Positions 3,046-39,540 are shown, counted from the first letter of the stretch. The stretch is DNA of 48,168 nt from Psammoneis japonica (GCA_008632985.1 QPGO01000035.1:1-48168), one strand, 5' to 3'. Made by a program: numbers and translations. The notes: generated from the letters alone by a model not told the origin.

Positions 3046-4000
3046 TCAGCAATGTCCGAAAAGAAGCCTTGGATTCAATTGGCTTTCCCTGGAAATTGTG
3101 GTTGGATGGCACGGAAGGACATTGTTGAAAACATCCTCGATGAGAAGCTTTTGATTCGATCGGCTTGGAATTGAAGGAGCGCAGCACGAGTGTGAAGCCA
3201 ACTCGAAAATGTGAGGTAGCACAACGCAGTGAACTTGACCAGAAGAGCATTGGGATGGAGCCTTAGAGGGTCTGTGAAGCGTCATTGGCAAAAATTGTTG
3301 GACATGTGATGCCACAACGTCGTCCGCGAGATTTTCAATCTGACATTTCAAGGACTTTAGATGTTCGTTCGCGGAGTGTCTGTTGCAATGCTTGTGCTCA
3401 TGCAAGAGAAACGGTGGGAGCTCTGTGCCAATGTCACTGCGCATGCTTTCCACGATTTTACAGTCGAGACCCTCTGTGTCGATGAGAACAAACACTGTGT
3501 TTTTGGACTCAGCAAGAAGCTCTGAGAAGTTGAGCACATTTACGCGAGTTTCAACAATGCAGTCTTCTGCTGTGTGTCCAACCCAAACTGCTTCCATTGT
3601 TGGCTTTCCTTCATTGCAATGCTTTTGTCAAAGACAGAGATTTGAGTCACCCACGGCGGGAGCTGTTTTCCACTGTTGGAATCGTAACCGGTGTGGACGT
3701 CAATGGTCTCATTTGTCGCATGGAACATCAAATCGTTGTCCTCTTTGTCAAGGAACGACACCGGCGTGAACCGTCTTGAAAGTGCACTGTGAGCCTTCAC
3801 ATTTTTTTCAAGTTCAGCACACTCTGGTTAGGAGGCGATGCCTCAATCATTGTGCATTCAATGCAAGCTTGTCGCAGCTCTGTTGGTGGGCCTTCCAACA
3901 AAGCAGTGATGCCCTTGGCAAAGGGATCGTCATCTTCCCAACCTGTGTGCGCTCCAATTCGCAAAACACGCAAGACTTCTGACTTTTCCTGTGGCACTTT
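3046..4000 (-). pseudogene. 5'-truncated, frameshifted, hypermutated copy of the FkbM-like gene at 14357-15349
   Basis: Near-identical to 14100-15060 and split over ORFs 3797-4198, 3540-3800 and 3046-3597. Y->C/H changes; the original TAA stop has become CAA. Confidence 0.92.
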
Positions 4001-4039
4001 GATGCAATGTGCCACGCACGCATGTGTGAGACGACGCCA

Positions 4040-4900
4040 TGCTGTTGTCTGTTCAGCAGAGTGCACACGTCGTGTGGGCAGTGCTTGCTGCGACGCAAAC
4101 TGCCAGAGTGAGTGGTGTGAAAGGGAGCTCCACATGTCTCCCTGACAGCACTCTGCTTTGTGAATCTTCCCACACCTCAACCAACCTCCCTGATTCAACC
4201 ATGTTTTGTCTTGTCACACGTTTGAGCAATGAGACATCATGGCAAAAAAGCCCATGCCTTGTCCCTTTCTTTGACAACAACACTTTGTTGTCACACCAGC
4301 ATCCTTTGGCTGAAGAAAAACACAACATGGGCTCTGATCAGCTGGTGTGACAGCCAGAAAAAACACAAAGTTGCCTCATTTTTCATGTGAGCTTGCCTTG
4401 TCAAACTTCAGCATGGGATCCCTTGGCACTTCTGAGAGGGAGGAAGGAAGTGGAGCAGAGAGAGAGATGAGAGGGAAAAACAAAGAAAAAATGATGTGCA
4501 GCACTGGCATCAGTTGACCATGCAGAGTCCAACACTCACCTTCCCCGTGAGCTTTGACCAGCTCACTTGGCAGCATGTTGGGTGGTGCACAGGGGGGGGG
4601 GGGGAAGCCAGCACCACCTGTGTAAAATGAAGTCCTTTGTTTGAGCTGCTGGCTGGTGTGAGAGATGGGCAAAATGTGCAACTTTGCACATGTGGTGTGC
4701 ACTCTTTCATTTCAGAGAATGTTCTGTTTCCAGTCAGAGCTGCAAAATCCTGTGCACAAGACTTCTCCAATTTTGTTTCACTGCACCAGATGGTGGGATG
4801 GCATGCTGGCCAAAGGTGAAAATGACAAAGATGCAGCCAGCTGGCCCTTGCCACCAGTGGCTGCCCCTGCTCTGCAGCTCAGAAGGGCATGAGCCATCAG
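4040..4900. repeat. Degenerate copy of the hAT-element segment also at ~7030-7850 and ~15570-16400
   Basis: Shared blocks such as tgtgaaagg(g)agctcca, ctga(t/c)cag(c/t)tggtgtg and agctttgaccagctcacttgg. Confidence 0.75.
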
Positions 4901-5249
4901 CACTGTGTCGCCACACATGCAGCTCACATCCCACTTCATTCTTGACCACAAGCAGGCTTGGGCAAGGGCACACTTTGCATCCACTCTTGGTCATCCTCTT
5001 GCAAGTGGATGAATGAACAGATGAACTCAAGAACAACAACAGAAAAATGTGATGACCAGCTCAAATTGACAACAGACAAATGAATGAACAGATGAATGAA
5101 TGATGAGAACATGGGTGCAAACAACACACCACACTGCTGCAAAAAAATGTGCCTCCGCCATTTGGCGCCATTTCTCATTGAGTTAAAACAAACTGCAATG
5201 CACCCCTCACTGGCCAACACTCTGCAACTCAGTTTCTTTGTTGCGCCAG

Positions 5250-7850
5250 TCATTGTCATCAGCAGTGCTGCAACTGCAAATTTTCAACTGCTCACCCCAG
5301 AGCCCAGCAACCATTTCAAAAAGCCTTGGCATTGTTCATTTGCAATCAGCTGCAATCACCATCCCACAATTCAAAAAGAGCAACTCAACCACCATGGCAG
5401 TGGCGGTGCTGAGGAAGCCACAGTCTGCACACTTGGTTCTCATGACAGCATCATCATCATGCAATCTCTTCTTTCCAGCTTCCACTGCAGCTGAAATTTG
5501 GAGGGACAGTCAACGTTGGTTGCATCTGTGGCTGCTTCTTCTTCTGGTGGATGCAGTTCTGGCCAATGCTCCTTGAGAAGAGCTGCAACACAAGCCCATT
5601 GCTTCTCTGACACTGTCAACTGATGTGCCACTCTCCCTGCTCAAAGACTGGGCACTCCATGGGGGGGAAGTGTGCTCTCAAGTGGCTCTCAAACTCCTCT
5701 GAGTGATTTTTTAGAATGGGGGCTTTGTGGCATGCTTTGAACAACTGAAGTTGGTGCAGCAAATTCACATCTCATCATGCTGCTGGCTGGATCTGTCTGA
5801 TCCACTCCTTCAATGTGTCATGCGACAAGGTGTGCAGCAGCTCTTGTCAAAATCCCTCTTCTCATTGGTGCTGAGAAGAGCTGGTGGGACCTTCTCAGTT
5901 TCTTCATTCAGTCCATTCTCAAAATCCTCTGTGTCTTTGGGTGTCACTGCATCAAACTGGTGTGATGCCAAGAACAACCTTGTGGTGCATCTGCCAAACC
6001 AAAGCTTTTTCTTTTTGCTGCCCTGTTTTGTTCTTGGTCTTTGGTCATCTGGCAGGATGTGGTGGTTGCAGATTTTTGCACTGACTTCAATGCTCTGGCT
6101 TGCAGCATGGCTGGATGAGGTGCAGCTCAACAAATTTCTGCACCAACTTTGACTGCACTGGTGATCACAGCATGAGCAGATGAGTGCCACACCCAACAGA
6201 TTTTTGCACTGGCAACTTTGACTGCACTGCCTTGCAGCATGACTGGACAAATGCTGCCCAACAAGCCCACCAGCTTGCCATCAAACATGTTGTTCATGAT
6301 CCAGCATGTCACCCCACCTGATTCAAATGGTGGCAGCATGCACAGCCTCACATTTCTCACTGTGCATTTGTCAACACTGCAGTTGTTGAGAGTGAAAGCC
6401 ACAACAAGAAGCTTGTCAAGAATGTCATTCTCAGACCACATGTTGCAAGCAAGCAGCAGCAAAACAAGATGCAATGGAATCTGCTTCTGGGTCTGTTTCA
6501 TTCAACAATGGCTCAATGGAAAGCAGCAACTTCAGTGCCTGCATTTGTCCATTGGCATCTCTGGTGGGCCACTGGTGGTGTGCAAGAGCATTGTGGCCCC
6601 CAACTGTCTGCGGTGCAAGAATTCCCTTTGCTGAGTGAACCTTTGTCTTTCAATCCAACAACATCAGCAAGCATGACAACATGCTTGTGGATTGTCTTGC
6701 AACTTTTTTTTAAATTCAAATGCTGGTGGCCAACCTCAACTTCCACAATGGACAATGCTTTGTTGTGCTTCACAATGACCTCAATCCAGCCAAATGCCTT
6801 TCTTGCTTTTGCTGAGAACTGGGGCTTGAACGACCCAGCAAATGTGGCATGGAGCTGGGGAGGTTGTTTTGCTGCTGTCATTTCCTCATGGTGCTTCCTC
6901 CAAATCAGCTGCATGGTGTTCTTGCATTCATCAGAAATCCAAGACACTTTTTTCAATGCCGGAAGTGTCCATGGGAAACCAAGTTGTTGCACCCACTGCC
7001 TGAGGCAATTTTGTCTTTCTTGCAATGGGTTGTGAAAGGAGCTCCATGTCTCTTCCTCACAGCATTTTGTCCACTTTGTGAACCTTGCTGCACTGCAACC
7101 AACTTTCCCAGCCCAACCATGATGCCTTGTGCCTTGTCTTCTTAATGACACATGGAAAAAAGTTGTTTTGTTCTTGGAGAGCACAACACTTCATTGTCAC
7201 AATGTCCTTTGGTTGAAGCACAGCACAACATCATGGGCTCTGATCAGTTGGTGTGGCAACAAACAAAAACACAAAGCAATCTCATTTTTCACATGATGAA
7301 AGCTTGTGCCTTGTCAAACTTTGCCACAGAGCTCCACTGTGCTTCTCAAGAAGGAAGGGAAGAAGAGCAGAGAAAACACAAAGAAAGCAAGCATGCACTC
7401 CCAGCTGGACAGTTGGTTGACCATGCAGAGCCCCAGTGCTCACCTCCATTGCACACCAGCTTTGACCAGCTCACTTGGTGCAATGTGTGATGGTGTGCAA
7501 GAGGGAAAGAAAGTCAGCGTCACTTGTGAATGACAAAATCCTTCTGATTTCTTGGAAAGCTGCACAGAAATCTTTGGTTGGGTTGTCTGTCTTTATGTGT
7601 GTGCAGTGTGTGCCCTTTCACATTCCAAGAGTGTGCTCTGTTCCAACCTGTGGCTTTTGCAAAATCATGTGCACAAGACATTTTGGAAATTGGCTGTTGT
7701 GATTGTTTTTGTTTCTTGACCAGAGCTCAAAAAGAGACCATGTTTGGTTTTAGAGACACATCTTGCTCTGTTTTGCTGCAGATGGCAGGGAGGCAGGCTG
7801 GCCAGAGGAGGTGAAAAGACCGTGGGGTGTCTCTCTTTCACACACCTCTG
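5250..7850 (-). mobile_element. Degenerate hAT-like DDE transposon (transposase relic)
   Basis: ORF 6513-7184 has KARKAFGWIEVIVKHNKALSIVE...SCKTIHKHV...TADSWG, resembling stramenopile hAT-like FGW.EWIV...LS.V...KT..KY...DGWS; downstream LNNCSVDK resembles GDNCSVN. Many stops and frameshifts. Boundaries approximate. Confidence 0.6.
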
Positions 7851-7889
7851 TTTCACAGCTGCTGTGCTGGTCAGCTCAAAGGTGCGCAA

Positions 7890-10640
7890 ATCATCTGTTT
7901 TTGACAGGCAAGGTCAGAAAAATCTTGAGACCAACAAATGGATGATGAGCAGCATGGAGAGAGCTTGCCACGTCAATCTCACAGACAGAAACTTGAAGTG
8001 CAGGGCTTGAATCCTCCCAACAGTTGCACATCTTTGGTGTGGGACCCAGTTGGTGGGGCTGTGTGCTCAAGGTTTTGTTTTGTGTGTGCTCTGCTCTTTG
8101 TTGGTGACTTTTCAATGCAACAGAGCTGTTCCCTTCCTTGTGCACACTCCTGAGGCACCCAGCACACCACAAAACCATGTTGGTGAGGCAAGCTGGTGCT
8201 TGCAACCATGGTGTTTGAGCCTGCAGACAACAATTTTCAGAAAGGGGTGCATCATCAACTGTGCTTGTGCCAGTGGCAAGGTGAAAGAAAAAATGGCTTG
8301 CACTGCCAGCATGTGCACAGAGATGGTGGTTCTGCTCAATTGTCCAAAGGTCCCAGAGAAATTTGTTGTTGCACCACAAAGGTGATGTTTGCACACTCCT
8401 CTCAGAATTGGGAGGTCACTGGGGGGTTTCACAATCTAAGATGATGCAAGAAAGTCCAAAGTTTTGGCTCTTCCTGGATTGCTTCCACAACACTCTGTTG
8501 ACAAAGGCAGATCTTGCAGCAAATGTTGATGCCATTTTTGAGCCCTTGGTCTTCTGCAACCATCTCAGCTGTTGCTCAAAAGAGGCACACATCCTTCACA
8601 TTGGCAAACAAGGAGTTTGGCCATTTCAGCACAACAAGCTCCCAACTGCATTGAGCAAATTCACAATCAATGTGAGTCATGAGACCCAAGTCAATGTGTG
8701 GCATTGCACTGTCCCACTGGACCTTGTTCCCACACACTTTTCTGCCCCATGCTTCAGGGGCAACTGTGGTGGCCCATTTGTTGCATTTGTGATTGCTGTT
8801 CCAAGAAGGGTGGGACCATCATCTGGTCATTTGTGTGACAGTCAAGTGTGGCAAACACCATCATTGAGTGTGTTGGGAGAGATGACTTTGCAAAGGATTC
8901 ATCATCACTTCGCTGCAGAATTTTTTGGCATGTTTGCAACTCAGAAAAAATGGAAAATCCCTCTGGAGCAGAGGTGGTGTTGAGCACCACTTTGATCTGA
9001 TGGAACAAAATCTGTGGCAGGCATGTGACACTGGATGTCATTGGGGGTGGGTGCAGCTCATCAGATTTTTTGAGTTGCCTTGAGCTTTCAACATTGGCAA
9101 GCACTTTGGCTGATCATGTGACAATGCTGAGGTGTGTCTCCCAGTGGAGCTGGAGGAGCAGAGTCAAGAGCTGTTTTGAAGGATGCTGTGGAGCATCTGG
9201 TGTGGACACATTTTGGGTGGTGGTGCCTCTGGAGAGTTGATGACAGCATGTGTCTGGGGTCAGCACCAGCACATCTGCTCCATCATTCCACAATTAAATC
9301 TGTCCATGTCTCACAGGTGGGCAAGATGAAAGTTGGGGTTTGGGGCTGACCACTTTCAAAATGACCAAATTTGAAAGCAGTTTTTGTGTGCAAAAAGAGC
9401 ATCCAATGATGACTGTTGAAGGTGCAGGGCTGAACATGATTTGCTTTGTGTGAACACACAAAATGTTTCAAATTTTGAGTTGCCTTGTCTCATTGCTGGA
9501 GTGGGGGGGACATCAACTCCTGGCCAGTTGAAGCACCACTTTTTCATTTTAAGGGTTGTTGACATTGAATGTTTGATCACCAGTTGCTTTGGTCTTTTCA
9601 TCTGCTTGCCTCAATCAGTGGCTGTGATGTGGCGCTTCTTTTCGTTTGAGAATGCATCAGATTTTGTGCGTGGATCTGGCTTTTGTCACTTGATGGTTTT
9701 TGTGATTTTTGCACACAGTGGAGCAACCTTGAGACAAAGCCCCCCTGGTGCCTTGTCCTCACCTCAGGCTGACCTCACCCAACAACCGTCAATCCTCATC
9801 AAGTGCACGTCATTCAAAGGGCACCTTCCTTTTGTGAAGCTCCCCCCCAAAAAGCCAACAGTGCCAATGCAATGTGGCTTCTTCTTTCTCCACATTCTTG
9901 CTGGGGCTCCTTGTAAGAGGGCAGCCATGGTGCAGCTTAAGAAGTGGGTCCACATGCCTTGATTTGCTCCCAGCCTGCTTGCAATGAGCATCTGGACAGG
10001 CTGCAAATGAGGCATCAGCTCGTCAAGATCGGATGACAAATCACAAAGACAACAAGTGCAAGACAGAGTGTGTGGTGTTTTCATGGAATGTTGTGCACTC
10101 TCGCCACTCACTGTGCCAGACCATTTGTGTGGGCTGCAAGAAGTGCCACACCATCAATTTGAGATCAGAGAGGTGTGCAACAAAGAGATGTGACCCCCTG
10201 ATGAGACATTTTGTGTGATGACACTCACACAGATGTTGTGAAATCTTTTTTCTTTGCCAGTGACAAACATCCAAAGAAAGCCCAAGAACACTGCAGCTGT
10301 CCTTCTCTCTCTGAGAGGGACAAACAAGAGACAACATCATGTGCTCATCATCACTCCGTGGCATTGGTTGTTTTGCCGTCCCCCGTGGATGGCTGCAAAG
10401 ACAACAAAACACCACAGCCGCCATCAGTGAAGTGATCAATCAAGTGGTGTTTTCACGTGCAGTTGGACCAAAAAGAAGAGATTCAATGTTGTGTGGTCGA
10501 GCAGTTTTCCCATTGTGTGACTGGCGCAAGATAAAAAGCTGCACCGGCACAGAAGCCTCGCTGTGCATGCAACACCTTGCTGGATTGGCCCATAAAAGCC
10601 TAGCAAAACGGTTATAACGGTGTTCGTGATTATTACCCTA
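7890..10640 (-). mobile_element. Degenerate repeat, possibly a MULE/MuDR-like DNA transposon
   Basis: TA- and CpG-void block. SWIM-like remnant (LGACCAEMAKLLVCQCEG, ~8590-8660), knuckle-like WCAGCLRSVH, and a right end ...attaccc. Family assignment is weak. Confidence 0.3.
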
Positions 10641-11235
10641 AACACTCGAGCAGGCGCGCCTAGGTTTGTAGTTTATAGTAGATACTGTACTTTACTGTGG
10701 TCCCCATTATTAGTTTTGAAAGCTAATATATTCCTAATTGATGAATACGTATATTGGTATTCATCACTTGAAAGTACATATATTATTTATTAAACTCTCA
10801 ACATGTAATATTAAAAGCCCATCTCCTCCAAAAATCCGAAAATTTTCGTCGCGGAGCGAGGCAGGAAGCGAAGATGATGACGACGATGAGAATAGAAAGA
10901 GATGCCGATATGTCAGCGCGATCGAAAGGATTTACAAGGTTATGCTAAAAGAGTAAACGAGTATCCGTCATGATGAGCTTACGGCTGCATGCGCTATGCT
11001 TCAGGTGGTGAGAAAACGAGTTCATCGGAGTTGGCCGACCATACCGTCTTCGCACATGTTAGCGATGTATCCGTTACACATGTTTGGAAGGAATCAGCGA
11101 CCAATCTGTCCGCCCAACAGGGGACTGTGGTTGGAATGAGGTCACAATTCGTACGAGTAGGGCCCTAGGTAGCAAGGTCTCCACAGGCAGTCTCGCTGAC
11201 TTATTGAAGAACTCCATTGTCACAAACTCATCGCC

Positions 11236-13584: not shown

Positions 13585-14340
13585 GGCGAGCTCCGAAGTG
13601 ATCGCAAAGAAGCTTTGGCATCGATTGGCTTTGAATGGGGCAAACAGAAAGACCCGCATACTGCACCTAGACCTGCTCTTGACGAAGAGGCATGGAAGCG
13701 ACGAGCAGGCAGTTGTTCCCGCAGAAGCATCAGAACATGCTGAGAAGGATGAATACCTTGAAAGAAATTCCTCTCGAGACAAACAAAGCAACGAGGAGAG
13801 AGATCCCTCCAATGACGTCCCTGCAATCAGAATGACGAACAAAGCAAGAGACGAAAACTCGACGAGAACGGGGAACGAGGCGACGATGATGAAACGGCAA
13901 CGAAAATACCCCCTCAGATGAATTGCGTCGTAAACCGGCACCCCGTTACGAGGATACAAGGAAGCAAAGATTTGGAGAGGTAAACTCATACATGACAGAA
14001 CACGGCCATTGTCGCGTTCCGCGGAGGTCTAAGGAAGACCCCGCCGTTGGGAGTATGGATCAAAAAGCAGCGAGCTCGATACCGGGGGACGATCAGCTGT
14101 TCGAAAAGAAGCCTTGGATTCAATTGGCTTTCCCTGCAAATTATAGTCACATGGCACGGAAGTTCATTATTGAAAACGCCAAAGTCCTCAATGATCGATG
14201 AGAAGCTTTTGATTCGATCGGCTTGGAAGTCAGGGAGCGTAGCACGAGCGTGAAGCCAACTAGAAAATGCGAGGTAGCACAACGCAGTTAACTCGACCAG
14301 GCAGAATAGCGTTGGGATGGAGCGTTAGAGGGTCTATGAA
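13585..14340 (+). pseudogene. Rearranged, internally deleted remnant of the HA-domain gene
   Basis: Contains GELRSDRKEALASIGFEWGKQK...LDEEAWK, one N-terminal repeat unit, RRKPAPRYEDT...HGHCRVP and GVWIKKQRARY, with frameshifts and no start. Confidence 0.85.
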
Positions 14341-14356
14341 GCGTTATTGGTAAAAC

Positions 14357-15349: not shown

Positions 15350-15499
15350 GTCATCGAGATTGGGGGATTGTTTGAGGCCGCAGGCTGCAGGCTGTCGCTA
15401 CTACTCTCTAGTTCGGCGTTCGGCCGTCAAAATGTGAGGGGGGAAACGAGAACCGTTATATATTTTTCAGGACTGTAGGGGAATGAAAGGTACGAAATT

Positions 15500-16600: not shown

Positions 16601-16700
16601 CATCGTCTGCTTGTTGCACGCGCGAATCATCAACGTGCGATACGCGGCCGCCAGTTTCGAAGATAGCCTCATCATGGAGTGTGATGAGTGATGAACGACA

Positions 16701-27849: not shown

Positions 27850-30783
27850 AAACGTAAACTGCGCCTGTGAACTGGGCACAGGTAGTACCGGTACAGGCTC
27901 TCCGGAGCCTGGGGGTTAGGGCCTCGGTGAGCGCCGGTTACCGCGTACATCAGTACCAAAACCTACGCAGGCCCTTTCTACTTAGGGGCAGGACATCATT
28001 CAATTATAGACGATGAAAGAACATTTATTGATGACTTTTCAGTCACGATCAAAAAATGTCCGACAGTTTCACGTGACCCCTGACACTTAAGTGATCCGAT
28101 GACGCGACGTTAAATGTTGTGAGACAACAAAAGTAGCGGCTTGACCGGCTTTTAGCCTTTCTTCTGGTACATTTTTCACTGGGGGTCTACACGGGAGGAT
28201 GGAAAAAATTGAAAACAAAAAATGCAGGGGCTATAGAGTTACAAAAACACAAAAAACACTCGACCTCCTTCAACCTCACACATCTTCCGATGGGAGAGGT
28301 TGGATGCGACGCGATCTTTTCTTCGGTCCTTGGGAGCGGTCGACCTTACGGCGCTTGGTATCACTAGATTGAGCCTTGGAAGTATCATACAATTGTCTGA
28401 GTGACATAGTACCTCTCTCCTCGTCAATCAGCCTTGCAGATTCCTGGAGTACAGCGGCACGGTCTGAAAAACCACGCACTCGCTCAGACCGTTTCAGAAT
28501 CAAGCCATACAGGTATGAACGACGACTGAGCTGCATAGTGACCCCACCCTGCCAATTCTTTTTGCTCACTCCTTTGTACTGTTCCAAGTGAAACTCCAGG
28601 TGCTCCTCCAACAATTTGGTCATTGTCTTTGGCATTTCTTTTGGAAAGTATGGTTGAGTAGCACCTGACGGCGGCGGAGGCAGATGCTGAACGATGCGCG
28701 AGCGAGTTGGATTCGAATCCAATACGGTACGTGTCTGAATCGCATTCCGACTACTCACAGCCATTCTGATGCTCTGCATCTGCTCACGTTGCTGCTGTTG
28801 TTGCTGCTGGTTTTGCCTCAGAATGATGTTAGTGAAATTTTGAACTTCTGCTGACAGTCGATCCATTTTCCCAACCAGAACCTGTGTATCGGTACGAACC
28901 GAGGAGAAAGCTGTCTGCGCAGCAATGTTCAGATTTTGAATCTCGTCTTCTTCTGCAGTGTCCATATCAGCCAACTCTTGAAGCCTGTCCCTTGCCCACT
29001 CAATGCACCTGCCGCCAAAAACACGAACCAATAGACGGGATACTTCGTGCTGCGGATACTCCGTGACCCAGTGGATGCCGTCTTGGCACAGGACGCGAGC
29101 GAAAAAAGGCAAGGTCCCATATAAAAAGTTTGCACCGCATGGCCACTTACGACCAACATTGTGTTGCTGTTTCCATGCAGGCAGTCTTGGCCATGTCATC
29201 TCTGCCAACTCAGTATCAGTGACGTTTGGTTTTCCGGGAACTAGTTCGCCGAAGGATATGTTGGTACGAGGGACGTAGTAAACCTTCTCCCCATGCAGCT
29301 TAGAGAACCCGGCGGCAATCAACTGCACTTGTGGAGGGATCTCAGGCAAGTATGAGACGTCAAGTGAATCTTTTCCATGTTTCGTCTGCTGCTCAATATT
29401 TTGCTTGGTCGCCCCGCCCATGTTGCTAGAATCGATGCCGGCGGTGCGAAGGTGAGTGCACTTTGCCCACGACGTCTTTGTTGCCCTGTACACCCGTTGG
29501 TATGCCTTACGGTGCGTGTCTAATGTTTTCCAACCCACTAGTTCATACTTGCACCAGTCCGGGAAACCGTCATGTTGATGTATGAAGTGGATTTCCGTAT
29601 CGCTATGAAACCTGCAGGCGGCGACGGCGGCGTTCACACCGGTTCCGCATCGCTTCCAGTCGCGGTGCCGCCACATGCCTGCAACTCTTTTTTTGTGGGA
29701 ACCTCGTTTGCCTGTAAACCGTTGCTCAATCAGAGCTATCATTGGACGTGCGACCGATTCGTTTGGGTTGCCGGGGCCGTGAGTTTCGTCATAGTGAATA
29801 TCCGCATAGCGTGTAAGTCGGAGCTGATCGCCTCGTATCATGGTCTGGCTGCAGCTGGTCCATGACACTACCAAGTTCTTCCAAGCAGCAGATTGAATAA
29901 TATAATTCAATGTCTTATCCTCAGCAACACGAGACAGAGTGTCCGTAGGCAGCTTGTCATGAGCTGATGCAAACGTAGTGAGCAAATTTTGGGTGTATCG
30001 CTCCTTGTGTGCCACCAGAGCGACGTCAACTGCCTCTGATCTCACAACGAATTTTGGATTGGGAGGTTTGTGCTCCTCCCAAGATGAATAATGCTGCAGT
30101 GACCAAATGACACGCTTGGCCGACTTCGGCGTGACGTCTCGTTTCGACACTACCTCCAAGAAGTACCGGTCGACCTGGTCTCGCGTCAAGTAAGGCGGCC
30201 CCGACAGAGCCGGCGATTCATCCACCCACCTTTTGTATGCATTCCACTCAGTGACATAAGTGCCATCCACCTTGGGTGGTGTGATGGTTTGGGCCAACAA
30301 GTCTCCCATGGAGACCTGAGACGCCATCTTGGGTCTGTTCTGCTCATTATGATAGCCTCGAGGGATGGTCTTTTGGGGTGCACCCACCTTACTATCAAAA
30401 GAAAAGAGGTTTTTGAAATCAAACGCTCACTTATGGCGTTCGATAAGTGGAGTCGTTTCGAATCATGTTGACATTCGAGTGGGAAGAAAGAACATTTCGA
30501 TAAGTGGATTTTATGTCTTGTCCTGTTCTGAAGGTTCTTATCTTCACTAACCACAGGCCTATCCGGGGTCCGGGAACCGGTTCCGGGGGTGGTTCCGGCG
30601 CCGGCCTCCTACGGGCAGGAACCACTGAGGACTCCCCCCGGTTAGCGCGGTTAACCCGTGACGTCAGGGGGAAGCGCGCCCCCCAAGTAGGGCCCTAACT
30701 ACTAAAAGGACATGTTGCATCGCGACAGAGATACCGGTGGAATGTGCTGGTCTACTTGCCAGACTCACCAAACGTAAACTGCG
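27850..30783 (-). mobile_element. Putative intact Crypton DNA transposon
   Basis: Single YR ORF between GC-rich subterminal tracts, bracketed by a 14-bp direct repeat aaacgtaaactgcg (27850-27863 and 30770-30783). Exact ends unproven. Confidence 0.6.
28276..30327 (-). CDS. Crypton-type (Ndc10-II-like) tyrosine recombinase with probable C-terminal GCR1_C-like domain
   Basis: Candidate catalytic set R (MIRGDQLR), K (TGK), H..R (THLR), H (TKH), Y (VSYLPEIP...AAGF); also RHRDWKRC, YYVPR, VLCQDG, and C-terminal PKTMTKLLEEH...W...SRR. First ATG at 30327 (30387 is GTG). Confidence 0.82.
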   Translation of the reverse strand: MASQVSMGDLLAQTITPPKVDGTYVTEWNAYKRWVDESPALSGPPYLTRDQVDRYFLEVVSKRDVTPKSAKRVIWSLQHYSSWEEHKPPNPKFVVRSEAVDVALVAHKERYTQNLLTTFASAHDKLPTDTLSRVAEDKTLNYIIQSAAWKNLVVSWTSCSQTMIRGDQLRLTRYADIHYDETHGPGNPNESVARPMIALIEQRFTGKRGSHKKRVAGMWRHRDWKRCGTGVNAAVAACRFHSDTEIHFIHQHDGFPDWCKYELVGWKTLDTHRKAYQRVYRATKTSWAKCTHLRTAGIDSSNMGGATKQNIEQQTKHGKDSLDVSYLPEIPPQVQLIAAGFSKLHGEKVYYVPRTNISFGELVPGKPNVTDTELAEMTWPRLPAWKQQHNVGRKWPCGANFLYGTLPFFARVLCQDGIHWVTEYPQHEVSRLLVRVFGGRCIEWARDRLQELADMDTAEEDEIQNLNIAAQTAFSSVRTDTQVLVGKMDRLSAEVQNFTNIILRQNQQQQQQQREQMQSIRMAVSSRNAIQTRTVLDSNPTRSRIVQHLPPPPSGATQPYFPKEMPKTMTKLLEEHLEFHLEQYKGVSKKNWQGGVTMQLSRRSYLYGLILKRSERVRGFSDRAAVLQESARLIDEERGTMSLRQLYDTSKAQSSDTKRRKVDRSQGPKKRSRRIQPLPSEDV

Positions 30784-31229: not shown

Positions 31230-33155
31230 CTAAAACGCGACGGTATCATCCATGGAGTACGATCTCTCATTTGTGCCAGAAGTCCCCGGTGACCACCGAA
31301 TCTCGGTACCACTACTACTCGCCGCCGACATGTGTGAATGACTGTCGGTGGTTTCCGCCTTGGAATGATTGCTATTGTTTGTTGGTTGCAATTCACTGTC
31401 CACGGCGACAATGGACGGCAACGAATCTTGTGGAAAGGGTTGACTGTAGACACTGCTGGCGCTTTTGCTGCTGTTTGCTGGAGACGGTTTCGTCCAATCA
31501 AAGGACTTGGAGAGAGCGGTGGGTGTCTTTACCACATTGAGAACAACAGGCGAAGATTGGAAATGGTTAGGATAGGGTTTGTCTGGTTTGGTACACGTGT
31601 CGTGGGAATCGACACTGTTGCTTCTGTCATTGCTTTCATTTTGTCTGTCGACCTTGCTTTCATTTTGACTTGCAATCTCGTTTTGGTCTTGTCTTTCGTC
31701 CTTGCTGTCGTTTTGACTTCCGTCCTTGCTATGTTCTTCCTCTTCTTCCAACGTAGCCAGGACGGTCCTTGGCGTGGCGTCGCTGCTCGTGGTACTCTGG
31801 ACTGGTTCCAAATCATAAAAACCATTGATTCTCTTGTGTTGGGGCTGGTGAACTTCTTGGGACAGCGACACGCACCGTGTTGCGGCTTGAAGCTCGCGAC
31901 GTCTGTGCCAAACACAGACGGCAATCAAGATTGCCACAGCAACCAATCCCAAGGTCAAGATCGCAATGCCTACTCCCGACATGCCGCCACCGCCACCGTC
32001 TTCTGAGAACGAGTCTTTGTCATTCTCGGGTGGCAAAGTGGGTTTCTCGGTTTTTGGTGGTTCCGTATCATTAGGAGGTTGCGTCTCTACTGGAGGTTCA
32101 GTGTCGATGGGCGGTTGCGTTATAACAGGAGGTTCAGTGTAGACGGGCGGCTGCGTCTCTACTGGAGGTTGCGTTTCAACGGGTGGCTGTGTCTCGATTA
32201 CTGGTGGTATGGTCAGTACAGGTGGATTTGTTTCTGCTGGAGGTTGCGTTTCAACTGGAGGTTGAGTTGCAACTGGTGGCTGTGTCTCGATTATGGGTGG
32301 CTGCGTCTCGATTACGGGTGGTACGGTCAGTACAGGTGGATTTGTTTGTACCGGCGGTTGCGTATCTGGAAGTGGTAGTGTCGTTCCTGGATTTGCCACC
32401 GGAGAATCACCCAAAAAGAATACAGACTTTACACCCGATTCCTCATCTTCAAATGGATCAGCTGTAGACAAGAAGGCGCCTCGTACAATATCATAGATGT
32501 CCTGTTCCACTTGATCCTTGTCGCCTTGATCTTCACTGGAATAGAGCACCACGCTATCTCGCATGACAAAGCACGTCCTGTCTTCGTCGTTGTTCTCATT
32601 TTGATTCTTGAGAACTCTGCAATCAAAGACTTCACTGAGAGCTGTAGCAGGAGGGCCGACATGGGCGGCCTTGAAGGCATATAATCGCCTCTCTCGACGT
32701 CGTCCGAGCCAATCACACACAAAGGCCTTGTTGGCCAAGACGCGCTTGAGTTTTTCATTCACATATTCTGCCGCCTCTTCTACATCATCGTCGTCCTCTA
32801 CAAGCAATTCATAGAAAAAGACCACCTTGGTTTTTTTCTTCAAATTAAAAAGATCTTGGTATTTTTGAGTTTCACAGGGAAAGACTTCTTCTGGGGCCTT
32901 GTCGGTCAACTTGTCATTATCAGCCTTGAGAACTCGTCGTGGCGTTTGCTGCTGAGGTCGGGTGACGCCTCGGAGTGTAGGGACCGCTTGGACTGTAGAT
33001 ATGGCTGAAAACAGAAGTACTGGTATAACCAGATATGAGCGATAGAGTGCCATCATCATGGCGTATGATAGATGGGGTTCCTCGATGCGGCTTTGATTGT
33101 GGTTGTGTGCGGGAAAACGGTATGTTGGTGGGAGCGGTGGTTGATCGGATGGCAC
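31230..33155 (-). CDS. Type I membrane/cell-surface protein with Pro/Thr-rich repeat stalk
   Basis: Signal-like LVIPVLLFSAISTVQA, RRERRL processing-like motif, more than ten (E/D)TQPP-type repeats, TM helix VGIAILTLGLVAVAILIAVCVW then HRRR. True start may be a downstream Met near 33059. Confidence 0.8.
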   Translation of the reverse strand: MPSDQPPLPPTYRFPAHNHNQSRIEEPHLSYAMMMALYRSYLVIPVLLFSAISTVQAVPTLRGVTRPQQQTPRRVLKADNDKLTDKAPEEVFPCETQKYQDLFNLKKKTKVVFFYELLVEDDDDVEEAAEYVNEKLKRVLANKAFVCDWLGRRRERRLYAFKAAHVGPPATALSEVFDCRVLKNQNENNDEDRTCFVMRDSVVLYSSEDQGDKDQVEQDIYDIVRGAFLSTADPFEDEESGVKSVFFLGDSPVANPGTTLPLPDTQPPVQTNPPVLTVPPVIETQPPIIETQPPVATQPPVETQPPAETNPPVLTIPPVIETQPPVETQPPVETQPPVYTEPPVITQPPIDTEPPVETQPPNDTEPPKTEKPTLPPENDKDSFSEDGGGGGMSGVGIAILTLGLVAVAILIAVCVWHRRRELQAATRCVSLSQEVHQPQHKRINGFYDLEPVQSTTSSDATPRTVLATLEEEEEHSKDGSQNDSKDERQDQNEIASQNESKVDRQNESNDRSNSVDSHDTCTKPDKPYPNHFQSSPVVLNVVKTPTALSKSFDWTKPSPANSSKSASSVYSQPFPQDSLPSIVAVDSELQPTNNSNHSKAETTDSHSHMSAASSSGTEIRWSPGTSGTNERSYSMDDTVAF

Positions 33156-33640
33156 TTTTTCATTTGAAATTCATTGAAACTATGGATTTGTAGACCGATA
33201 AAAGCGGTCAGGTTATTTAGATCCTCAAGTGTGGACCTTATATATATGTTTTCTACGTATGTCACACGATGTTGTCACGGGATATAAACAATTGTTCTTT
33301 ATATATTCATTTAATATATTTAATCTTCCCAACGAATACAATAAGTATATATTTAATACCTTTCAATATGATAATTTAACCGTTTTGTTAAACACGGAAA
33401 TTCAGTATCAAATTTATCTTGAACCGGTAACTCGACGTTTCATAGTCGTTTCAGATATAAATTTTAATCATTTTGGAGACAAGTGGTATTCAACGACTTG
33501 TCGCGCCAAAATTTTGAATTCGTTTTGAGAGGGGAGGCTCTTTGTGTGCTCGCTTGTCTGTGCTCTTCTTTCTTGCTGTGATCTGCTGTCTGTGCTCTGC
33601 GGCAATCACACACAAAAATAAAACAAGAAGCAACCCCACC

Positions 33641-35698
33641 ATGACGCTCTCGTCGGATGATGATTCCGACGACAAGAAGCGTTGGAACCTTGACGTGGAC
33701 ATGACGCTAACACCCTTTCCAGGTGCACGTAAAAGGAAAAAGCAAAACAACAACACCGTGATTGATTCGTCTTCTTCTGAAGACGAATTGGATGCAGCGC
33801 TCCGAAAAATTGGAACCAAGCAACGAAAACAAAAGAAGATGTATGATTCTTCGTCGGATGATGACGACGACTCGTCGTGTTTTGAACCTTCACCGTTTGC
33901 AAAGGAAAAGCATGATGGAGGTTCCCGTTTGGGTGCAGCGCCTCGAAGACGCATGTCAACAACAACAACAATACAGCAGCAGACTGTAACAGCAGAAAAC
34001 TCGGATTCCGATGACGATTCTTCGTGTTTTGAGCCTTCGCCGTTTGCAAAGCAAAAGCCTACAACAGACGACGATTCACGCTTGGGTGCAGCGCCTCTCA
34101 AAAGTTCATCCACGAGAATACAACAGCAGACGGTAACCACAGAAAACTCGGATTCCGACAACGATGCTTCGTTTTGTGAGCCTTCGCCGTTTAGCCAAGC
34201 AAAACTTCAGACAAGTGCTAAGGAACAAACTGCTACTACTACTACATCAGAATTTACCTTGCCCGACCACAATGATGACTCGTCATCCTCAGATGAATCA
34301 TCGGTTGATTTATCGCTCAACAATGGAAGCCGAGGACCGTATGATACTGGTGAAGAATGTTTTGTTGAGACGGAGCCATTATCGTTTCAAAACAACGACA
34401 GTAATGATGATTGGCATACCGGATGTGCATTTAATACGACGACGGCCTCATCGCCGAAAGATCCTCCAAGAAACGACTTTACAGAAAGCGGCTTTGAAGC
34501 AAGCAGTTGTGCAGATGATTTTCATCAAGGAGGTAATCACGAAGCAATTGCGGAGAAAGAGACTCTTCAAGCACCCACGCAAAAGCCGAGAAGGTTCATG
34601 GGAAAGGAGGATGAGCTCGTGGAGAAGGCCTTCTTTTCCTCTTGTGTACCGTCCGAGCCAGAGCCAGCCAAAACAAGAACGCAGAGCTATGCACCGCGAG
34701 ACGCATTTCTCAAGACTACTTCTAGCCACCATAATAGGAAACGAGCACCACCTGTCCATCAAGAAGTGGTGGACTTGTGTGAAGACGACGATGTCAAGCA
34801 ACAGCAAGACATAGCGCCAGAGGTACACGAGGGATTGAGAGTTCCGATTCAGAGTCCGCAATTCAACCAGCGACTCTTCACGGATAATGTCCAACCTGTG
34901 CAACACAAGAAGGACAAAGATAATGATGATATTGTGGAGTGCTGGTCCGATGATGGAAAGAATGCGAGTGCAATGGAGCGAACGAGCACTACTGCAAGAC
35001 GTGAGCACTCCTCTCAGCAGCATCCACTACACAATCCTCGGCAATCGCTATTTTCTCGGTCTTCCAGCACACAGCATGCTGCTTCCGAGAGGAGCAGTAC
35101 CCGCGCATTGGAATCGTCGCATCTTCCGAAACGATGGAATGCCGAAAGAACAGATCGCCGGCGAAGACTTCGGGATGCTACCAATACGCACGAGGCGGCC
35201 GCAGTGGTTTTGAGGAACACTTCGTTTGATAGCAACAATGAACACTCGTTTGCTTCGTCTTCTTCTGCAAGACGGCCCAAGAGAAAGTCCTTTGTTCAGT
35301 CGGAAACAAACGTGTGGTACAGCAACGAGCCGTACTATCCACCAGTAGCTGCCACGGCAAGCGTGACGCAACGCAACGATCTCATGGGTGGTTCTGGTGC
35401 CGGTGTGGGAGGACATGATTTTGTAGCTGCGCCGGCGTCAAAGCCTCGGGGTGGTAGGAAGAAGAAGGCGACGGCGAAGAAGGCGACGACGAAAAAGGCT
35501 TGGGGCGGTCGCCGCCGATACAATGGATACAACAAGAAGAAAGGAACATACAACAATCGAAAAAAGGGAAATTACACCAACAACAGCAACGGTCGGCGAC
35601 GAAACAACAATAACAACAACTCAAACAGTGACTACATGGAGATATCGAGACAAGACCCGCAACTCAATCATGTCGGAGGAGCAAACATTATATTTTAG
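33641..35698 (+). CDS. Low-complexity, probably disordered nuclear protein of unknown function
   Basis: Long ORF from ATG 33641 with NLS-like RKRKK, three DDDSSCFEPSPF-type repeats and a basic K/R/N tail. Confidence 0.75.
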   Translation: MTLSSDDDSDDKKRWNLDVDMTLTPFPGARKRKKQNNNTVIDSSSSEDELDAALRKIGTKQRKQKKMYDSSSDDDDDSSCFEPSPFAKEKHDGGSRLGAAPRRRMSTTTTIQQQTVTAENSDSDDDSSCFEPSPFAKQKPTTDDDSRLGAAPLKSSSTRIQQQTVTTENSDSDNDASFCEPSPFSQAKLQTSAKEQTATTTTSEFTLPDHNDDSSSSDESSVDLSLNNGSRGPYDTGEECFVETEPLSFQNNDSNDDWHTGCAFNTTTASSPKDPPRNDFTESGFEASSCADDFHQGGNHEAIAEKETLQAPTQKPRRFMGKEDELVEKAFFSSCVPSEPEPAKTRTQSYAPRDAFLKTTSSHHNRKRAPPVHQEVVDLCEDDDVKQQQDIAPEVHEGLRVPIQSPQFNQRLFTDNVQPVQHKKDKDNDDIVECWSDDGKNASAMERTSTTARREHSSQQHPLHNPRQSLFSRSSSTQHAASERSSTRALESSHLPKRWNAERTDRRRRLRDATNTHEAAAVVLRNTSFDSNNEHSFASSSSARRPKRKSFVQSETNVWYSNEPYYPPVAATASVTQRNDLMGGSGAGVGGHDFVAAPASKPRGGRKKKATAKKATTKKAWGGRRRYNGYNKKKGTYNNRKKGNYTNNSNGRRRNNNNNNSNSDYMEISRQDPQLNHVGGANIIF

Positions 35699-35819
35699 GT
35701 TGGCAAAGACTTCTCGTACGTGTACGGTAGAGCATAGATGACATATTTTTTAGTCTTTCTACAGTTTTTGCTTAGCTCTTTTGCGAAACATTTATGCTGT
35801 TAAATCCCCAGGAAGAGCT

Positions 35820-38800
35820 GGATCAGGGGGGTAAGTTTTGTTGCGCCGCAGCCTCCAGCCCGCTTAAGTGTCGTCGAATCTTTTTCGGTCAGCAGAATGA
35901 AAGCTGTTCATGTCAGCCACATTCATTCAGTTCCCGTGAACAGACGATGGCTTTGCTGGCCTGTTCCAGGGAGACATGTCCTTAACTGGGGGTGGGAAAA
36001 ACTTGCTTCTGCAAGATGCCTGTTTGACCTGTCCCATTGTGGGGTGGATCTCTGGCGGGTGCAACTTGCTAAAATATTTGGTGGATCAACTCCTGGATCT
36101 TCAGTTGTTCAGGCATGAAAACTCAATGAACATGTCTGCCAAAATTCATTTTGGCACAGAGTGGTGCCCAAGCATGTCTGAGAGTGCCTCTCCAGCTCAA
36201 CACAATGTGGACATGCTTCTTCCTTTTACGGGGCTGCAGAGGGGCAGGAAAGCAATGTCCCAGTTGATGTGGTGCTCCTGGCAAATTTTGCTTGGTCTTG
36301 CTGCCAGACAAATTTTAGTCAGTGCTCTCAGCCCAACACCAAGGTTTGATGTGTGCTGACACCATGAATGAAGGCCACAATTGATTCCAGATGATGTCCC
36401 TTTCTTTGTCTCCCCCAGGGCAAAAATGATTGTGCAACCAAGTCCATTTGCAAAATGATGTTGCTGCCAGTCTTGCCATGAATTCTGACAGAAACTTTTT
36501 GCAATTTGGCAATGATTGGCATGTGTGTCAGATTTGAGTGGTGCTGCATGTTGTTGATGACTGACGACAATGTGTGTCAACCATCAGCATGTGTGTGTGT
36601 GCATGTGTGTGTTTGTGTCTTGGCTCACATGCAGTGCCAATGACATCCCACAAGTTATCACAAATGCATCATCTCATGGTGTGTGGCAGCTTGGCTGGAA
36701 GCCTTTGCCACCATCCACACATGCACACGTGCACCACGCAATGAGAGCAAAGACACTGTGACATGCACTTGCATGGTGTGAATGAACAAATGGTGCTGGC
36801 ATCACCAGTGGGAGAAAAGCATGCAATGAAACACACAAGCAACTTGCATGACAGTCACCAGTCAAAAATGTTGGTGCATGTGTTTCCAAATCAATCAGCT
36901 GGGGCAATGTGCCATCGTGCCAATGCCAGTGGCTGCTCCACACTTCCAAACAAATTGTCAGCTGTGTGTTGCTGCAGCAAAGTGAGCGAACATGACAAAG
37001 ACAATCAAGAAACAGAAAAAAATGACCACAGCATGGCAGTGAATGAGTTTCACAAAAAATTGTAAAAAAGAGCGTTGTTCCAGCTCCTCAGTCACCGGCA
37101 CAGCAAACACACCAACTGTGTGCTCAGCACAGCTGGCAACCACACATCATGTTTGCACATCTCAATGTGTGAGCACATGTGTGCTTGTTTGCTTTCAGCA
37201 TTTTTTGCCACACCTTGCAGACAGCTTTTTGGCTTGCCCAACTTTGGGCCAAAAATTTTGAGGCACACTTCCTGCTTTTGGCTTCTCTTTCTTCTTTGCT
37301 GCTGTTCTGAGTGGCTTTGGGTTCTTGCACCAAGCTTTGCCTCTTTTTCTTGGGAAAGGCAGCTTGATCTTGCTTTTTGTCAGATCCATTTTGATTTTCT
37401 GCAACTGCTCCTCATGGAAAAGCTGCCCCATTTTGGTGTTCTTTGTTGTTGATGAGAACATTCAACTTTGGTGTTTTTGTTGCAAGACAAACTTCAAACG
37501 GCACAAAGAATGAGGGTTGCTTGCACTTTTGCACTTCAAACTGAGGCACTGTCTGGGAAAACGCAAGAAAAAATGCATTGGTTGTCAAACTGTGCCAGAG
37601 AGAATTAAACAATCTGCACTCATCAACCTGTCCTCTCAAAAACAAAAACATTTGCTGTTGCTTTATTTTGTCATGAACACATCATTGTTGCAAGTTGACA
37701 TCCACTGGTTTTTGCTTGCACCAATGCTGCCACAAAAAAATTGTCAAGCCATTTTTTGTGTTTGCAGCATGTCACATCAGATTGAAATGCTTGTGCTGGC
37801 TGGGTCATGCAAAAAAAGCTTGACAGCTGCTTGCTGTTGTCACAATGTGAAAAACCAGCATTGACAAGCTTGCAGACAAGCACATTGATTGGCAATGCTT
37901 GGGAGCAATGTCAAACCATTGGCTTGCAGAGCTGGTGGTGCCCTCAAGCCAGATTCTGTCAAGGGCACTTGAGGGGGAGCTGCAATGAGCCTCTTTCTGT
38001 GCAGAAGCACACCAAAACTCTGCTCAAATCATTGGCCCCAAAACTCTTTGAGAAAGTGAACTGCAAAGCCATTTTTTTCTTGCTGGCCCCTTCTTAGATC
38101 CAAAGAATCCATCCAAGCAGTTGCAACAATGTGCTCAACTCTGTGGCCAGTGTGAGGCAGATGTGTGAAGGCCAGAGCAAAGTTGGCTGAGTTCAAATTT
38201 TTTCTCAAACATGATGATTTGCTCTTGGGGGGATTGGTGCCAGAACAATCCAGGAATTCACTCCAGAGTGATGACAGAAAACACAACCTCACTTTGTCCC
38301 CTTGACTCTCAGCTGGAAATGGCTTCACACCACATTTGTCAATTTTGCTCAACCCCGTGCGCAGCAAAGAGGCTGTGAAGCTCGACTGGTGGCACGCTGG
38401 CTTTCTTGACTTTAATTTTCTCCATTTTCTCACTGACATTTGACATTGCTTGGAGGTTGGCAATGCCCAAAACACAGGCAAGCAGCTCAAGAACAAGCAC
38501 CTTGCTGCTGCAGAGCAACAGCTGAGAGGCTGAAAAAGCAGTGACCCTGAGATTGGGATCTCCGCTCCTCCTTTTTGCACCAAGCTCTCCATGTTGAGAG
38601 CCATCCAATTCATGAATCCAAATTGGGAAAGGAGGTGACACTCAACAGGGATGTTTCAAGGATTTGGAGTTGCACTTTGGTCTGAGGTTCTCTTGAAGGG
38701 ACATTGAAGAGGTGGAGCAAGTTGCTGTCCAACAACAATGCCGTTCTTGTGCAACAAAAAGCTTGGCTGCAGCCACGATGCTGATGTCCTGCACACATGC

Positions 38801-39540
38801 ACACATGTGCACAGCAAATGCACTGAATTCATGAGCAACTTGAGTGCCAGCTGCTGCTTGCCAACACACACCATGGCACTGCTTTGTGCTGCAAAACTCA
38901 ACCAATCGGGGTGAGATGTTGCTGCTGGTTGTGCCAACATGCCAACGCCCACCCCACCAAGTTTTTGAGAGCAAGTTGATCGCACATGGTGGCTCCACAG
39001 CAAAGTGAGCAAATGCAGCTAAGACAGCCAAGAAACAGACAATGAAAATTGTTGCAGAGAGCAGAAATTGGCAGGCTTTGCATGTCTGTGTGAGCATCCA
39101 AGCAGCATCTTCTTCTTGCCCCGCTGGCGGCTCTCTGTCAGCAACAGATGCACCACCCACCCACCAAAGCAACTGGCAAATATGTGTGCACACACAGGTT
39201 CACATCAGCAGCACATTGCATGGTTTCATTCACTCTCACTGTTTTTGCCACACCTGGCAGATGGCTTTGGTCAACCTGACTTCTGAGGCAAAACTGTTGC
39301 CAGAAACTTCTTGATGTTGGGCTCGAGGCTTTTGTTTTGTTGTGTTTTCATTTTCTCTGTCTTCTTTGCTGGCTGTGTTGAACAGCTTCAGGCTCTGCAT
39401 GCGCTGCACACTTTGCCGCTTTTTCTTGGTGAGTGCAGCGCTTGGTCCTGGTTTTTGTTGGATGCGTTTTAGAAAAGGCAACTGTGGTGTGCGCGTTTGT
39501 TTCGCCAAAAGTTGAACTGCGATTCGATTTATTTCCGTTG
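35820..39540. mobile_element. Degenerate repeat, probably a DNA-transposon relic (family unresolved)
   Basis: TA/CpG-void block (~36100-39400) between two normal genes, with no intact ORF; K-rich and Cys-rich remnants on the minus strand. Confidence 0.4.

Follow-up and report, generated by a model that had tools for sequence, protein, structure and literature searches.

Voids of TpA and CpG in a diatom contig: evidence for directional mutation in place and a probable case of TpA hypermutation alongside CpG decay

The 48,168-nucleotide stretch of Psammoneis japonica DNA analysed here (GCA_008632985.1 QPGO01000035.1:1-48168; the whole stretch is referred to below as the window) contains four blocks that have lost most of their TA and CG dinucleotides and are saturated with TG and CA. 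Our analysis indicates that these voids are probably a diatom instance of a newly described TpA hypermutation process, which would have acted in place, alongside CpG decay, on old repeat-bearing DNA. Hypermutation of TpA to TpG or CpA has so far been reported only in an unrelated alga, Bigelowiella natans (Mettrop et al., 2026; preprint, bioRxiv 10.64898/2026.01.13.699255, cited here and below as far as its available text goes), and our literature searches found no report of TpA-directed hypermutation, of repeat-induced point mutation (RIP) or of a RIP-like process in diatoms.

Composition of the voids and direction of change

Expected dinucleotide counts were derived from the window's own 24,104 bp of ordinary DNA, and the blocks were defined by a 500-bp dinucleotide scan together with a map of every TA and CG in the window (Table 1). 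Summed over the four core blocks, 33 TA were seen where 612 were expected (~5%) and 136 CG where 871 were expected, a CpG loss of ~85%, and TG and CA stand ~1.6-fold over expectation; relative to normal DNA, the void frequencies are 0.06 for TA and 0.15 for CG. The deficits of the individual blocks have Poisson probabilities of 1e-8 to 1e-107, and TA, of which the window has 1082 in all, is absent from runs of up to 1306 bp. Genes beside the voids are ordinary, with observed/expected ratios (O/E) of 0.3-0.8 for TA and ~0.7-1.3 for CG. The voids take up intergenic space as far as the adjoining promoters and gene ends; intergenic DNA elsewhere in the window is TA-rich. A first-pass annotation of this DNA had already placed four domains here, poor in TA and CG, saturated with TG/CA and flanked by normal genes, and our sliding dinucleotide scan agrees with it on each of these points. 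It had also described the edges as sharp, which holds in so far as they are at most 100 bp wide, with TA and CG both restored within ~100 bp; the exception lies at 23.5-24.75 kb, across which CG recovers gradually. Its start of the first domain at ~4.0 kb is correct for the combined loss of TA and CG, whereas TA depletion begins already at ~685, and 1991-4099 retains 17 of 81 expected TA with CG nearly whole (96/115).

Two intergenic stretches, 10591-10800 and 33001-33500, are very TA-rich and low in G+C (TA O/E 0.9-1.04, G+C 36-42%) and are probably promoter regions; the former adjoins the right edge of void 1, immediately upstream of a kinesin gene. Ordinary non-coding DNA in the window is therefore not TA-poor.

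The losses and gains balance. Measured against the normal density of the window, 15,811 bp of void fall short by ~530 TA and ~744 CG, and the surplus of TG and CA is ~1327; in void 1 alone, 552 TA and CG were lost and 549 TG and CA gained. G+C content is 47.8% in the voids versus 48.4% in normal DNA. The voids thus match gene-like DNA in which TA and CG have been converted to TG/CA. The edge zone of void 3 is one-sided, with a CA surplus of 74 and a TG surplus of 14 for 43 missing TA and 39 missing CG, and both types of change seem to have struck the minus strand there.

The direction of change can be read from a TA-poor, CG-retaining segment adjoining void 1, which is a mutated duplicate of host genes (copy A), by comparison with its unmutated paralog within the window (copy B). 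Self-comparison of the window aligned the two at 88% identity over 1030 bp. Copy B has normal TA (O/E 0.48-0.65), and its product gives a weak match to FkbM methyltransferases and has 294 homologs at E ≤0.001 in a library-wide search. At the 42 TA sites of copy B, copy A has TG at 22, CA at 10, TA at seven and something else at three, so that 32 of the 35 altered sites became TG or CA, that is, underwent transitions; all seven TA of copy A are also TA in copy B, and there are no reverse cases. The 56 CG sites of copy B include 15 that are TG or CA in copy A, with one reverse case. Over 2638-2993 the window could also be compared with a third, expressed paralog, read over ~350 bp from contigs of public sequencing runs: of the 32 differences listed there, 10 pair TG/CA in the window with TA in the paralog, and none is the reverse. 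For polarisation by outgroups we used 35 homologs from the search that returned 294. Twenty amino-acid differences between the copies are of the TA type, and at these the outgroups favour the state of copy B at 13 and that of copy A at five, with two ties; the five at which the copy A state is commoner all fall at unconserved positions. Where at least 20 outgroups agree, they share the copy B residue at all eight TA-type differences. Tyrosine is found among the outgroups in 33/35 at Y207, 33/35 at Y259 and 30/35 at Y331, positions at which copy A has H, C and C, respectively. The composition is the product of directional mutation and is not native.

In this same ~1 kb, taken to be the youngest target, copy A has lost 76% of its TA sites versus 27% of its CG sites, and the TpA process is therefore several-fold faster than CpG decay. 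Other A>G and C>T changes in the pair amount to ~2% per strand, and the historical rate at TpA is ~18-fold that at other A sites (0.39 vs 0.022 per strand). The zones at 1991-4099 and 23501-24752, void of TA and rich in CG, fit with being younger or more peripheral targets.

Sequence context is equally restrictive. After strand normalisation, A>G change in the pair affected 32/82 A in TA (0.39), as against 5/174 in AA, 2/133 in CA and 3/140 in GA (0.015-0.029). Within TA, the changes fell on TAT (16/28) and TAC (9/17) more than on TAG (5/19) or TAA (2/18). C>T change affected 15/112 CG versus 2/135, 4/82 and 2/116 in the other contexts, which puts CpG at ~6 times the other C>T rates. The TA that survive in the voids carry the complementary signature: 19 of 32 stand in YTAR, compared with 172 of the 1027 TA of normal DNA (Fisher p 1.3e-7), and TAA makes up 40 of 64 strand-summed survivors versus 452 of 2057 in normal DNA. 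The motif is T-A and not W-A, with a 3' pyrimidine favoured and TAA largely spared.

The voids are also present in independent k-mer contigs that we examined from a public sequencing run (X1). Over 3758-4602 and over 4723-9358 these depart from the window at a single base in each case, the latter stretch having one gap as well, and over 15619-20000 they are identical to it. Word depth in X1 is ~56-74 over voids and genes alike, and most void DNA is single-copy by depth. Since the X1 contigs reproduce the voids at ordinary depth, a base-calling artefact at modified bases is very unlikely. Contigs of a further run (X2) cover genes and no void, and this absence of cover is not evidence.

Targets and action in place

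Copy A holds two genes on opposite strands, a reading frame with HA domains and an FkbM-like pseudogene, in the same gene order as copy B, which identifies it as a DNA duplication and not a retrocopy. In the protein of the pseudogene, Tyr residues of copy B have become Cys or His (IEYTMIE in B is IECTMIE in A, FLLYEHKH is FLLHEHKH and SLKYQ is SLKCQ), and there are frameshifts and a lost stop in addition. Tyr accounts for only 3 of the 780 residues in the HA-domain open reading frame (ORF), and where one domain unit has Tyr (RRLYHEG), the two units that follow have Cys and His.

Upstream of the four HA domains of this ORF, a 255-bp tandem repeat (721-1923; 4.7 copies, 79% matches) codes for an acidic linker, and its units show 8 TG-versus-CA columns, against 2-3 for control swaps. 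The homologous acidic-repeat unit in copy B has just 3 TA in 270 bp and so is itself TA-poor; the TA-free run at 685-1990 consists largely of this naturally TA-poor repeat and was for that reason dropped as evidence.

A repeat family of ~0.8 kb has three copies in the window, of which copies 1 and 2 are direct repeats 2.9 kb apart. A transition-tolerant alignment of these two gave 781 columns, 532 of them identical, 169 transitions and 80 transversions. TG stands opposite CA in 28 columns, whereas control dinucleotide swaps gave 5, 2, 6 and 6, which indicates that the same ancestral TA or CG was resolved independently in each copy after the two had separated. Both strands were struck about equally, as TG (1731) and CA (1705) are nearly even in the four core blocks. 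No long single-strand runs were found in the voids, where TG/CA dispersion (1.76) is similar to that in normal DNA (1.39), and the 32 events in the paralog pair show no strand clustering (16 runs vs 14.75 expected, by hand count). The pair does lean towards TG, at 22:10 for TA and 9:6 for CG (31 TG vs 16 CA). Copy B, ~10 kb away and equally duplicated, is untouched. Within void 1, the high-copy segment listed in Table 1 has many loose ends, with branching contigs at 9329-9373 and 9765-9802. The first-pass annotation had argued for a process that works in place on chromosomal domains and not during reverse transcription. Action in place on chromosomal DNA is upheld by the strike on a two-gene duplicate, the involvement of both strands, the TG-versus-CA columns between repeats and the sparing of a paralog 10 kb away; the basis of targeting may be a chromatin domain, the individual repeated or foreign element, or sequence homology.

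The contents of the voids proved less easily named. They had been read at first as relics of hAT, gypsy and other transposons with spared termini, and this identification was not reproduced. We found no hAT, gypsy, other transposon or viral domain when 129 ORFs of at least 70 aa from all voids were compared with Pfam, the matches being at chance level only. Six-frame read-through translation (X at stops) of 19200-22200, 4000-7300 and 7300-10600, covering 9.6 of ~16.5 kb, gave no family either, its lone match being a chance-level bacterial membrane protein; for 22200-24900, 15400-16700 and 35900-39600 the scan covered just the ORFs of at least 70 aa. As a positive control, the TA-depleted HA ORF was still detected by Pfam (E 3.5e-68), and TA loss alone therefore does not blind Pfam. 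An open 332-aa frame in the edge zone of void 3 (23699-24697), the longest void ORF, has no Pfam family and no homolog among 465 candidates, and its atlas neighbours score ≤0.83 and are uninformative. A search of a viral-contig collection returned no relative of two void ORFs, this frame being one of them. The spared termini could not be reproduced: a search of the void edges for terminal repeats, direct or inverted, gave nothing above 30 shuffles, and purine/pyrimidine-collapsed 28-mers recovered only repeats that were already known. What supports the repeat nature of the voids is the ~0.8-kb family with its three copies and the high-copy segment.

The genes of the window are typical of diatoms and include HA-domain repeats, FkbM-type methyltransferases, DUF389 and AlgH-like proteins. 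The DUF389 protein and PRMT7 find their best matches among metagenome or run-assembly proteins (51-66%); among named proteins, Bacillariaceae and Cylindrotheca come first (47-54% identity), followed by Fragilaria, Seminavis, Nitzschia and Fistulifera (38-41%). Judged by these proteins, the host is a pennate diatom without a close annotated relative, and not Bigelowiella. As a background control we scanned 362,464 bp of metagenome DNA, in 80 stramenopile-like loci that encode relatives of a window protein. Low TA was found in 7 windows of 500 bp, spread over 4 loci, and not one of these windows has CG loss or a TG/CA O/E of at least 1.5.

Table 1. Coordinates of voids, repeats, duplicated genes and a retrotransposon frame in the window (dinucleotide counts as seen/expected).
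Feature	Coordinates	Strand	TA	CG	TG	CA	Remarks
Deep void 1	4100-10531		12/246	32/350	764/480	727/462	
Deep void 2	15655-16500		0/32	14/46			Occupies gap between two divergent genes
Deep void 3, core	19390-23500		6/157	34/224	461/307	509/295	
Void 3, edge zone	23501-24752		5/48	29/68	107/93	164/90	
Deep void 4	36100-39469		10/129	27/183	411/252	389/242	
Repeat family copy 1	4050-4889	+					Pairs with 6966-7795, partly with 15611-16283
Repeat family copy 2	6966-7795	+					
Repeat family copy 3	15655-16500						Same as void 2; similar to 4112-4637 and 7029-7734
High-copy segment in void 1	9339-10005						Summed word depth 769.5 vs ~60-70 around (~12-fold)
Mutated segmental duplicate of host genes	685-4099						TA-poor, CG-retaining zone
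HA-domain ORF	687-3029	+					780 aa; within mutated duplicate
FkbM-like pseudogene (copy A)	~2996-4001	-					Frameshifted, stop lost
Unmutated reference (copy B)	14046-15059	-					Inside intact 346-aa ORF 14357-15397
LTR (long terminal repeat) retrotransposon gag/protease frame	44805-48167	+					Open, 1121 aa, runs off window end

Proposed process, alternatives and related systems

We propose that the voids and the adjoining duplicated gene segment represent old repeat-bearing, probably silenced DNA, and that two transition processes, each specific to its sequence context and both ending in TpG/CpA, have altered it in place. One of these would be a localised hypermutation of A in TpA to give TpG (or CpA if the other strand is struck), with TAT and TAC preferred over TAG and with TAA mostly spared. 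The other would be C>T change at CpG, most simply through deamination of 5-methylcytosine in methylated repeats, and the CpG loss would then reflect methylation. The chemistry at TpA may be an enzymatic conversion of adenine to hypoxanthine in DNA, possibly by an ADAT2/TadA-like enzyme, the candidate published for B. natans, and it is plausible that targets are chosen through silent or foreign chromatin. The first process raises G+C and the second lowers it, so that base composition would stay at ~48%, and at constant G+C such DNA escapes GC- or AT-based scans. Under the genetic code, change of TA to TG or CA never creates a stop (TAA changes to TGA or CAA, TAG to TGG or CAG), and among changes at CG only CGA>TGA yields one. 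This accounts for the long open frames in mutated DNA, of 780 aa at 687-3029 and 332 aa at 23699-24697. Genes would be disabled by missense change (Tyr to Cys or His; Ile to Thr, Met or Val) and presumably also through the loss of TA-rich signals. In two zones A>G and C>T changes share a strand lean, and conceivably a single deaminase, or a single exposed-strand intermediate, lies behind both.

Alternative explanations differ in how targets are recognised and in when the changes arise. A homology-triggered process, in which duplicated DNA is recognised (e.g. before meiosis) and its TpA and CpG mutated in bursts, would follow the logic of RIP with another chemistry. The targets do include a gene duplicate, a dispersed repeat family and a high-copy segment, and many diatoms have DNMT4 enzymes related to fungal RID (PMC9998398, in its available text). 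We nevertheless regard such a trigger as unlikely, given that the 88%-identical intact paralog is unmutated (none of the 7 copy A TA sites differs, and there is one discordant TG/CA site), that most void DNA is single-copy by word depth, that TA and CG losses are decoupled within one and the same stretch (76% vs 27%), and that the hypermutated viral region of B. natans is single-copy in the text available (bioRxiv 10.64898/2026.01.13.699255). A smaller chance still attaches to TA loss as a by-product of repair, whereby T:G excision at deaminated 5-methyl-CpG would be followed by error-prone, Pol-eta-like resynthesis that misreads A/T at TA. TA and CG loss do share domains, and the paralog pair has a common strand lean for both (22 TG vs 10 CA at TA, 9 vs 6 at CG). 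Pol eta prefers WA, however, and no such signature is seen, since change at AA (5/174) is no higher than at CA (2/133) or GA (3/140). Furthermore, 32 of the 35 changes at TA are transitions, TA is nearly gone while CG is almost intact at 1991-4099 (17/81 vs 96/115), and the B. natans report, in the text available, describes its process without mention of CpG (bioRxiv 10.64898/2026.01.13.699255).

It is very improbable that the changes preceded integration, with retroelement RNA or cDNA deaminated in the manner of ADAR or APOBEC and then inserted, so that the edges would be element ends. Sharp edges would be expected of such editing, and edited retroelement copies are known in vertebrates (PMC4866542, in its available text), but here the strands were struck about equally and without strand runs, a two-gene segmental duplicate with genes on opposite strands was hit, two repeat copies in one locus diverged at shared ancestral sites, and no reverse transcriptase or retroelement domain was found in the void scans. 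We give just as little credence to a native composition, to selection on UpA and CpG, or to a sequencing or assembly artefact at modified bases. Ordinary genes here are moderately TA-poor (O/E 0.3-0.8) and the acidic repeat at 685-1990 is naturally so; against this, comparison with two paralogs and 35 outgroups gives the change a direction, the copy that mutated is a pseudogene with frameshifts, intergenic DNA outside the voids is rich in TA (O/E up to 1.04), and k-mer contigs of normal depth reproduce the voids.

Several observations weigh against TpA hypermutation and CpG decay of old repeat-bearing DNA, or narrow what can be claimed for it. Direct before-and-after evidence comes from one paralog pair of ~1 kb and 350 bp of a third copy, and the preference for particular 3' neighbours from 32 events and 32 survivors. 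The ancestral state of the deep voids is deduced from the mass balance and assumes a gene-like starting composition. The description of the targets as foreign or repeated draws on three copies of a small repeat, one high-copy segment and one pseudogene duplicate, and the voids contain no recognisable viral or transposon protein domain. Copy B is duplicated and yet unmutated, from which it follows that a homology trigger, if any, does not now suffice. Promoters and gene ends lie at the sharp edges, which may have been sharpened in part by selection on the flanks rather than by the process itself. X1 may be the source data of the window assembly. Finally, there is no such domain in 362 kb of related metagenome DNA, which bears on the generality of the process among diatoms.

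The closest parallel is that described for B. natans, a chlorarachniophyte and thus a rhizarian, where two integrated viral regions received 231 of the 302 new substitutions recorded in mutation-accumulation lines (Mettrop et al., 2026; bioRxiv 10.64898/2026.01.13.699255). All but one of these 231 were A>G or T>C, those transitions all lying at TpA, and the rate was ~6e-7 per site per generation, ~1000 times background, though sporadic and confined to some lines. The genome contains 124 clusters of TpA-poor, CpA+TpG-rich windows, many of them unannotated, and its nucleocytoplasmic large DNA virus (NCLDV) region retains 3.3% TpA dinucleotides. The authors suggested an ADAT2-like DNA deaminase and read the process as a defence against invading DNA. 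To the extent that the preprint's available text permits comparison, both cases share nearly exclusive A>G/T>C change at TpA to give TpG/CpA, confinement to regions beside normal genes, and the resulting clusters depleted of TpA and rich in CpA+TpG. They differ in several respects. The host here is a diatom, a stramenopile; TA loss is near saturation (~5% of expectation); it is accompanied by ~85% CpG loss, whereas the term CpG does not occur in the available preprint text; and its identifiable victims are a small repeat family, a high-copy segment and duplicated host genes, and not recognisable viral genes. The TAA-sparing 3'-neighbour bias seen here is likewise not described in the preprint's main text. 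De novo mutations were seen in B. natans, whereas the rate ratio reported here is historical. Taken as the same process, this is a new lineage for a phenomenon only just described, to which our analysis adds saturation, joint CpG decay and a strike on duplicated host genes.

Other systems correspond in part. Like the changes described here, fungal RIP ruins repeats and duplicated genes in place through dinucleotide-specific transitions on both strands within sharp bounds. RIP in ascomycetes, however, converts C to T at CpA, creates TpA and stops and lowers G+C, whereas here TpA is destroyed at constant G+C, by a change that cannot give rise to stops. The window does not show the TpA excess and AT enrichment that mark RIP (TA at 0.06 of normal, G+C 47.8% vs 48.4%). 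Nor have all copies been mutated as in RIP, copy B retaining normal TA and an intact ORF where copy A has lost 32 of 42 sites. RIP is thus best regarded as a functional analogue whose defining features are absent here. In diatoms, transposons receive CpG methylation from DNMT5 (PMC9998398, in its available text). Decay of CpG in methylated transposons resembles what we see in being C>T change specific to CpG and limited to repeat-bearing silent DNA, but it would plausibly cover the CG half only, TA loss being faster and reaching DNA in which CpG is near intact. Editing by APOBEC3 and ADAR enzymes is similarly a deaminase-type, context-dependent hypermutation of invading sequences, and ADARs also favour a 5' U/T. 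These enzymes act on cDNA or RNA and leave one-strand signatures tied to the life cycle of the element, whereas both strands are affected here. The context favoured by ADARs is UAG, and the corresponding TAG is not favoured in the paralog pair (5/19 vs 16/28 for TAT).

If the process is the same as in Bigelowiella, TpA-directed hypermutation would span at least two deep lineages of the SAR group (stramenopiles, alveolates and rhizarians), including the ecologically dominant diatoms. Beyond the mutation-accumulation study, the window contributes an end state, with ~95% of TA gone, and a rate relative to the decay of methyl-CpG, which is several-fold slower. Any candidate deaminase must reproduce the order of preference from TAY to TAG with TAA spared, and duplicated host genes can be among the victims. 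Because such relics keep a normal G+C content and long open frames, detectors of the RIP type or based on GC overlook them, and they may swell the number of genes counted as orphans. Repeat annotation by homology also fails on them, 16 kb having yielded no domain; in any genome, relics of this kind would show up in a simple scan that sets TpA against TpG+CpA. A wider extension, about which we are doubtful, is that TpA deamination is an old, chromatin-targeted arm of defence across SAR algae, joined in diatoms with CpG methylation. Were this true, it would be a compositionally 'silent' counterpart of RIP, in which TpA and CpG, both self-complementary, are driven to TpG/CpA, with dead genes annotated as orphan proteins and TA-rich signals stripped.

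Other features of the window

The right end of the window carries a retrotransposon frame (Table 1), apparently intact and representing the 5' part of the element. Its translation has a CCHC-type zinc knuckle and the aspartic-protease motif DTGAS, and matches Pol_BBD weakly (E 0.0059). Cys and His make up 4.0% and 3.4% of its residues, and TA is low in its first 1.4 kb, where 45095-46500 has 12 of 54 expected TA with normal CG (82/77). This element, of which the window shows one copy, may be an early-stage target.

At full depth, X1 differs from the window by changes of the CpG-transition type at 4240, 5245 and 11307 (TG versus CG, CG versus CA and CG versus TG), and has 10 extra bases inserted after 15510; differences of assembly, strain or allele account for these. 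At 18763, within the PRMT7 ORF, the window and X1 have G (TG) and an X2 contig has A (TA, depth 19.2/19.2), which could be a TA>TG difference between strains or over time, or an error. An X2 contig lacks 12037-12127 (91 bases) within the kinesin gene; the missing piece resembles a spliced intron and suggests that X2 is RNA, though the entry for this run says DNA, followed by a question mark.

Between voids 3 and 4 lie three long ORFs with normal TA, at 28276-30426 (minus strand, 716 aa), 31230-33170 (minus strand, 646 aa) and 33518-35698 (plus strand, 726 aa). One gives a sub-threshold match to NDC10_II (E 3.8e-4) and the others match no family, and all three may be mobile-element or lineage-specific genes.

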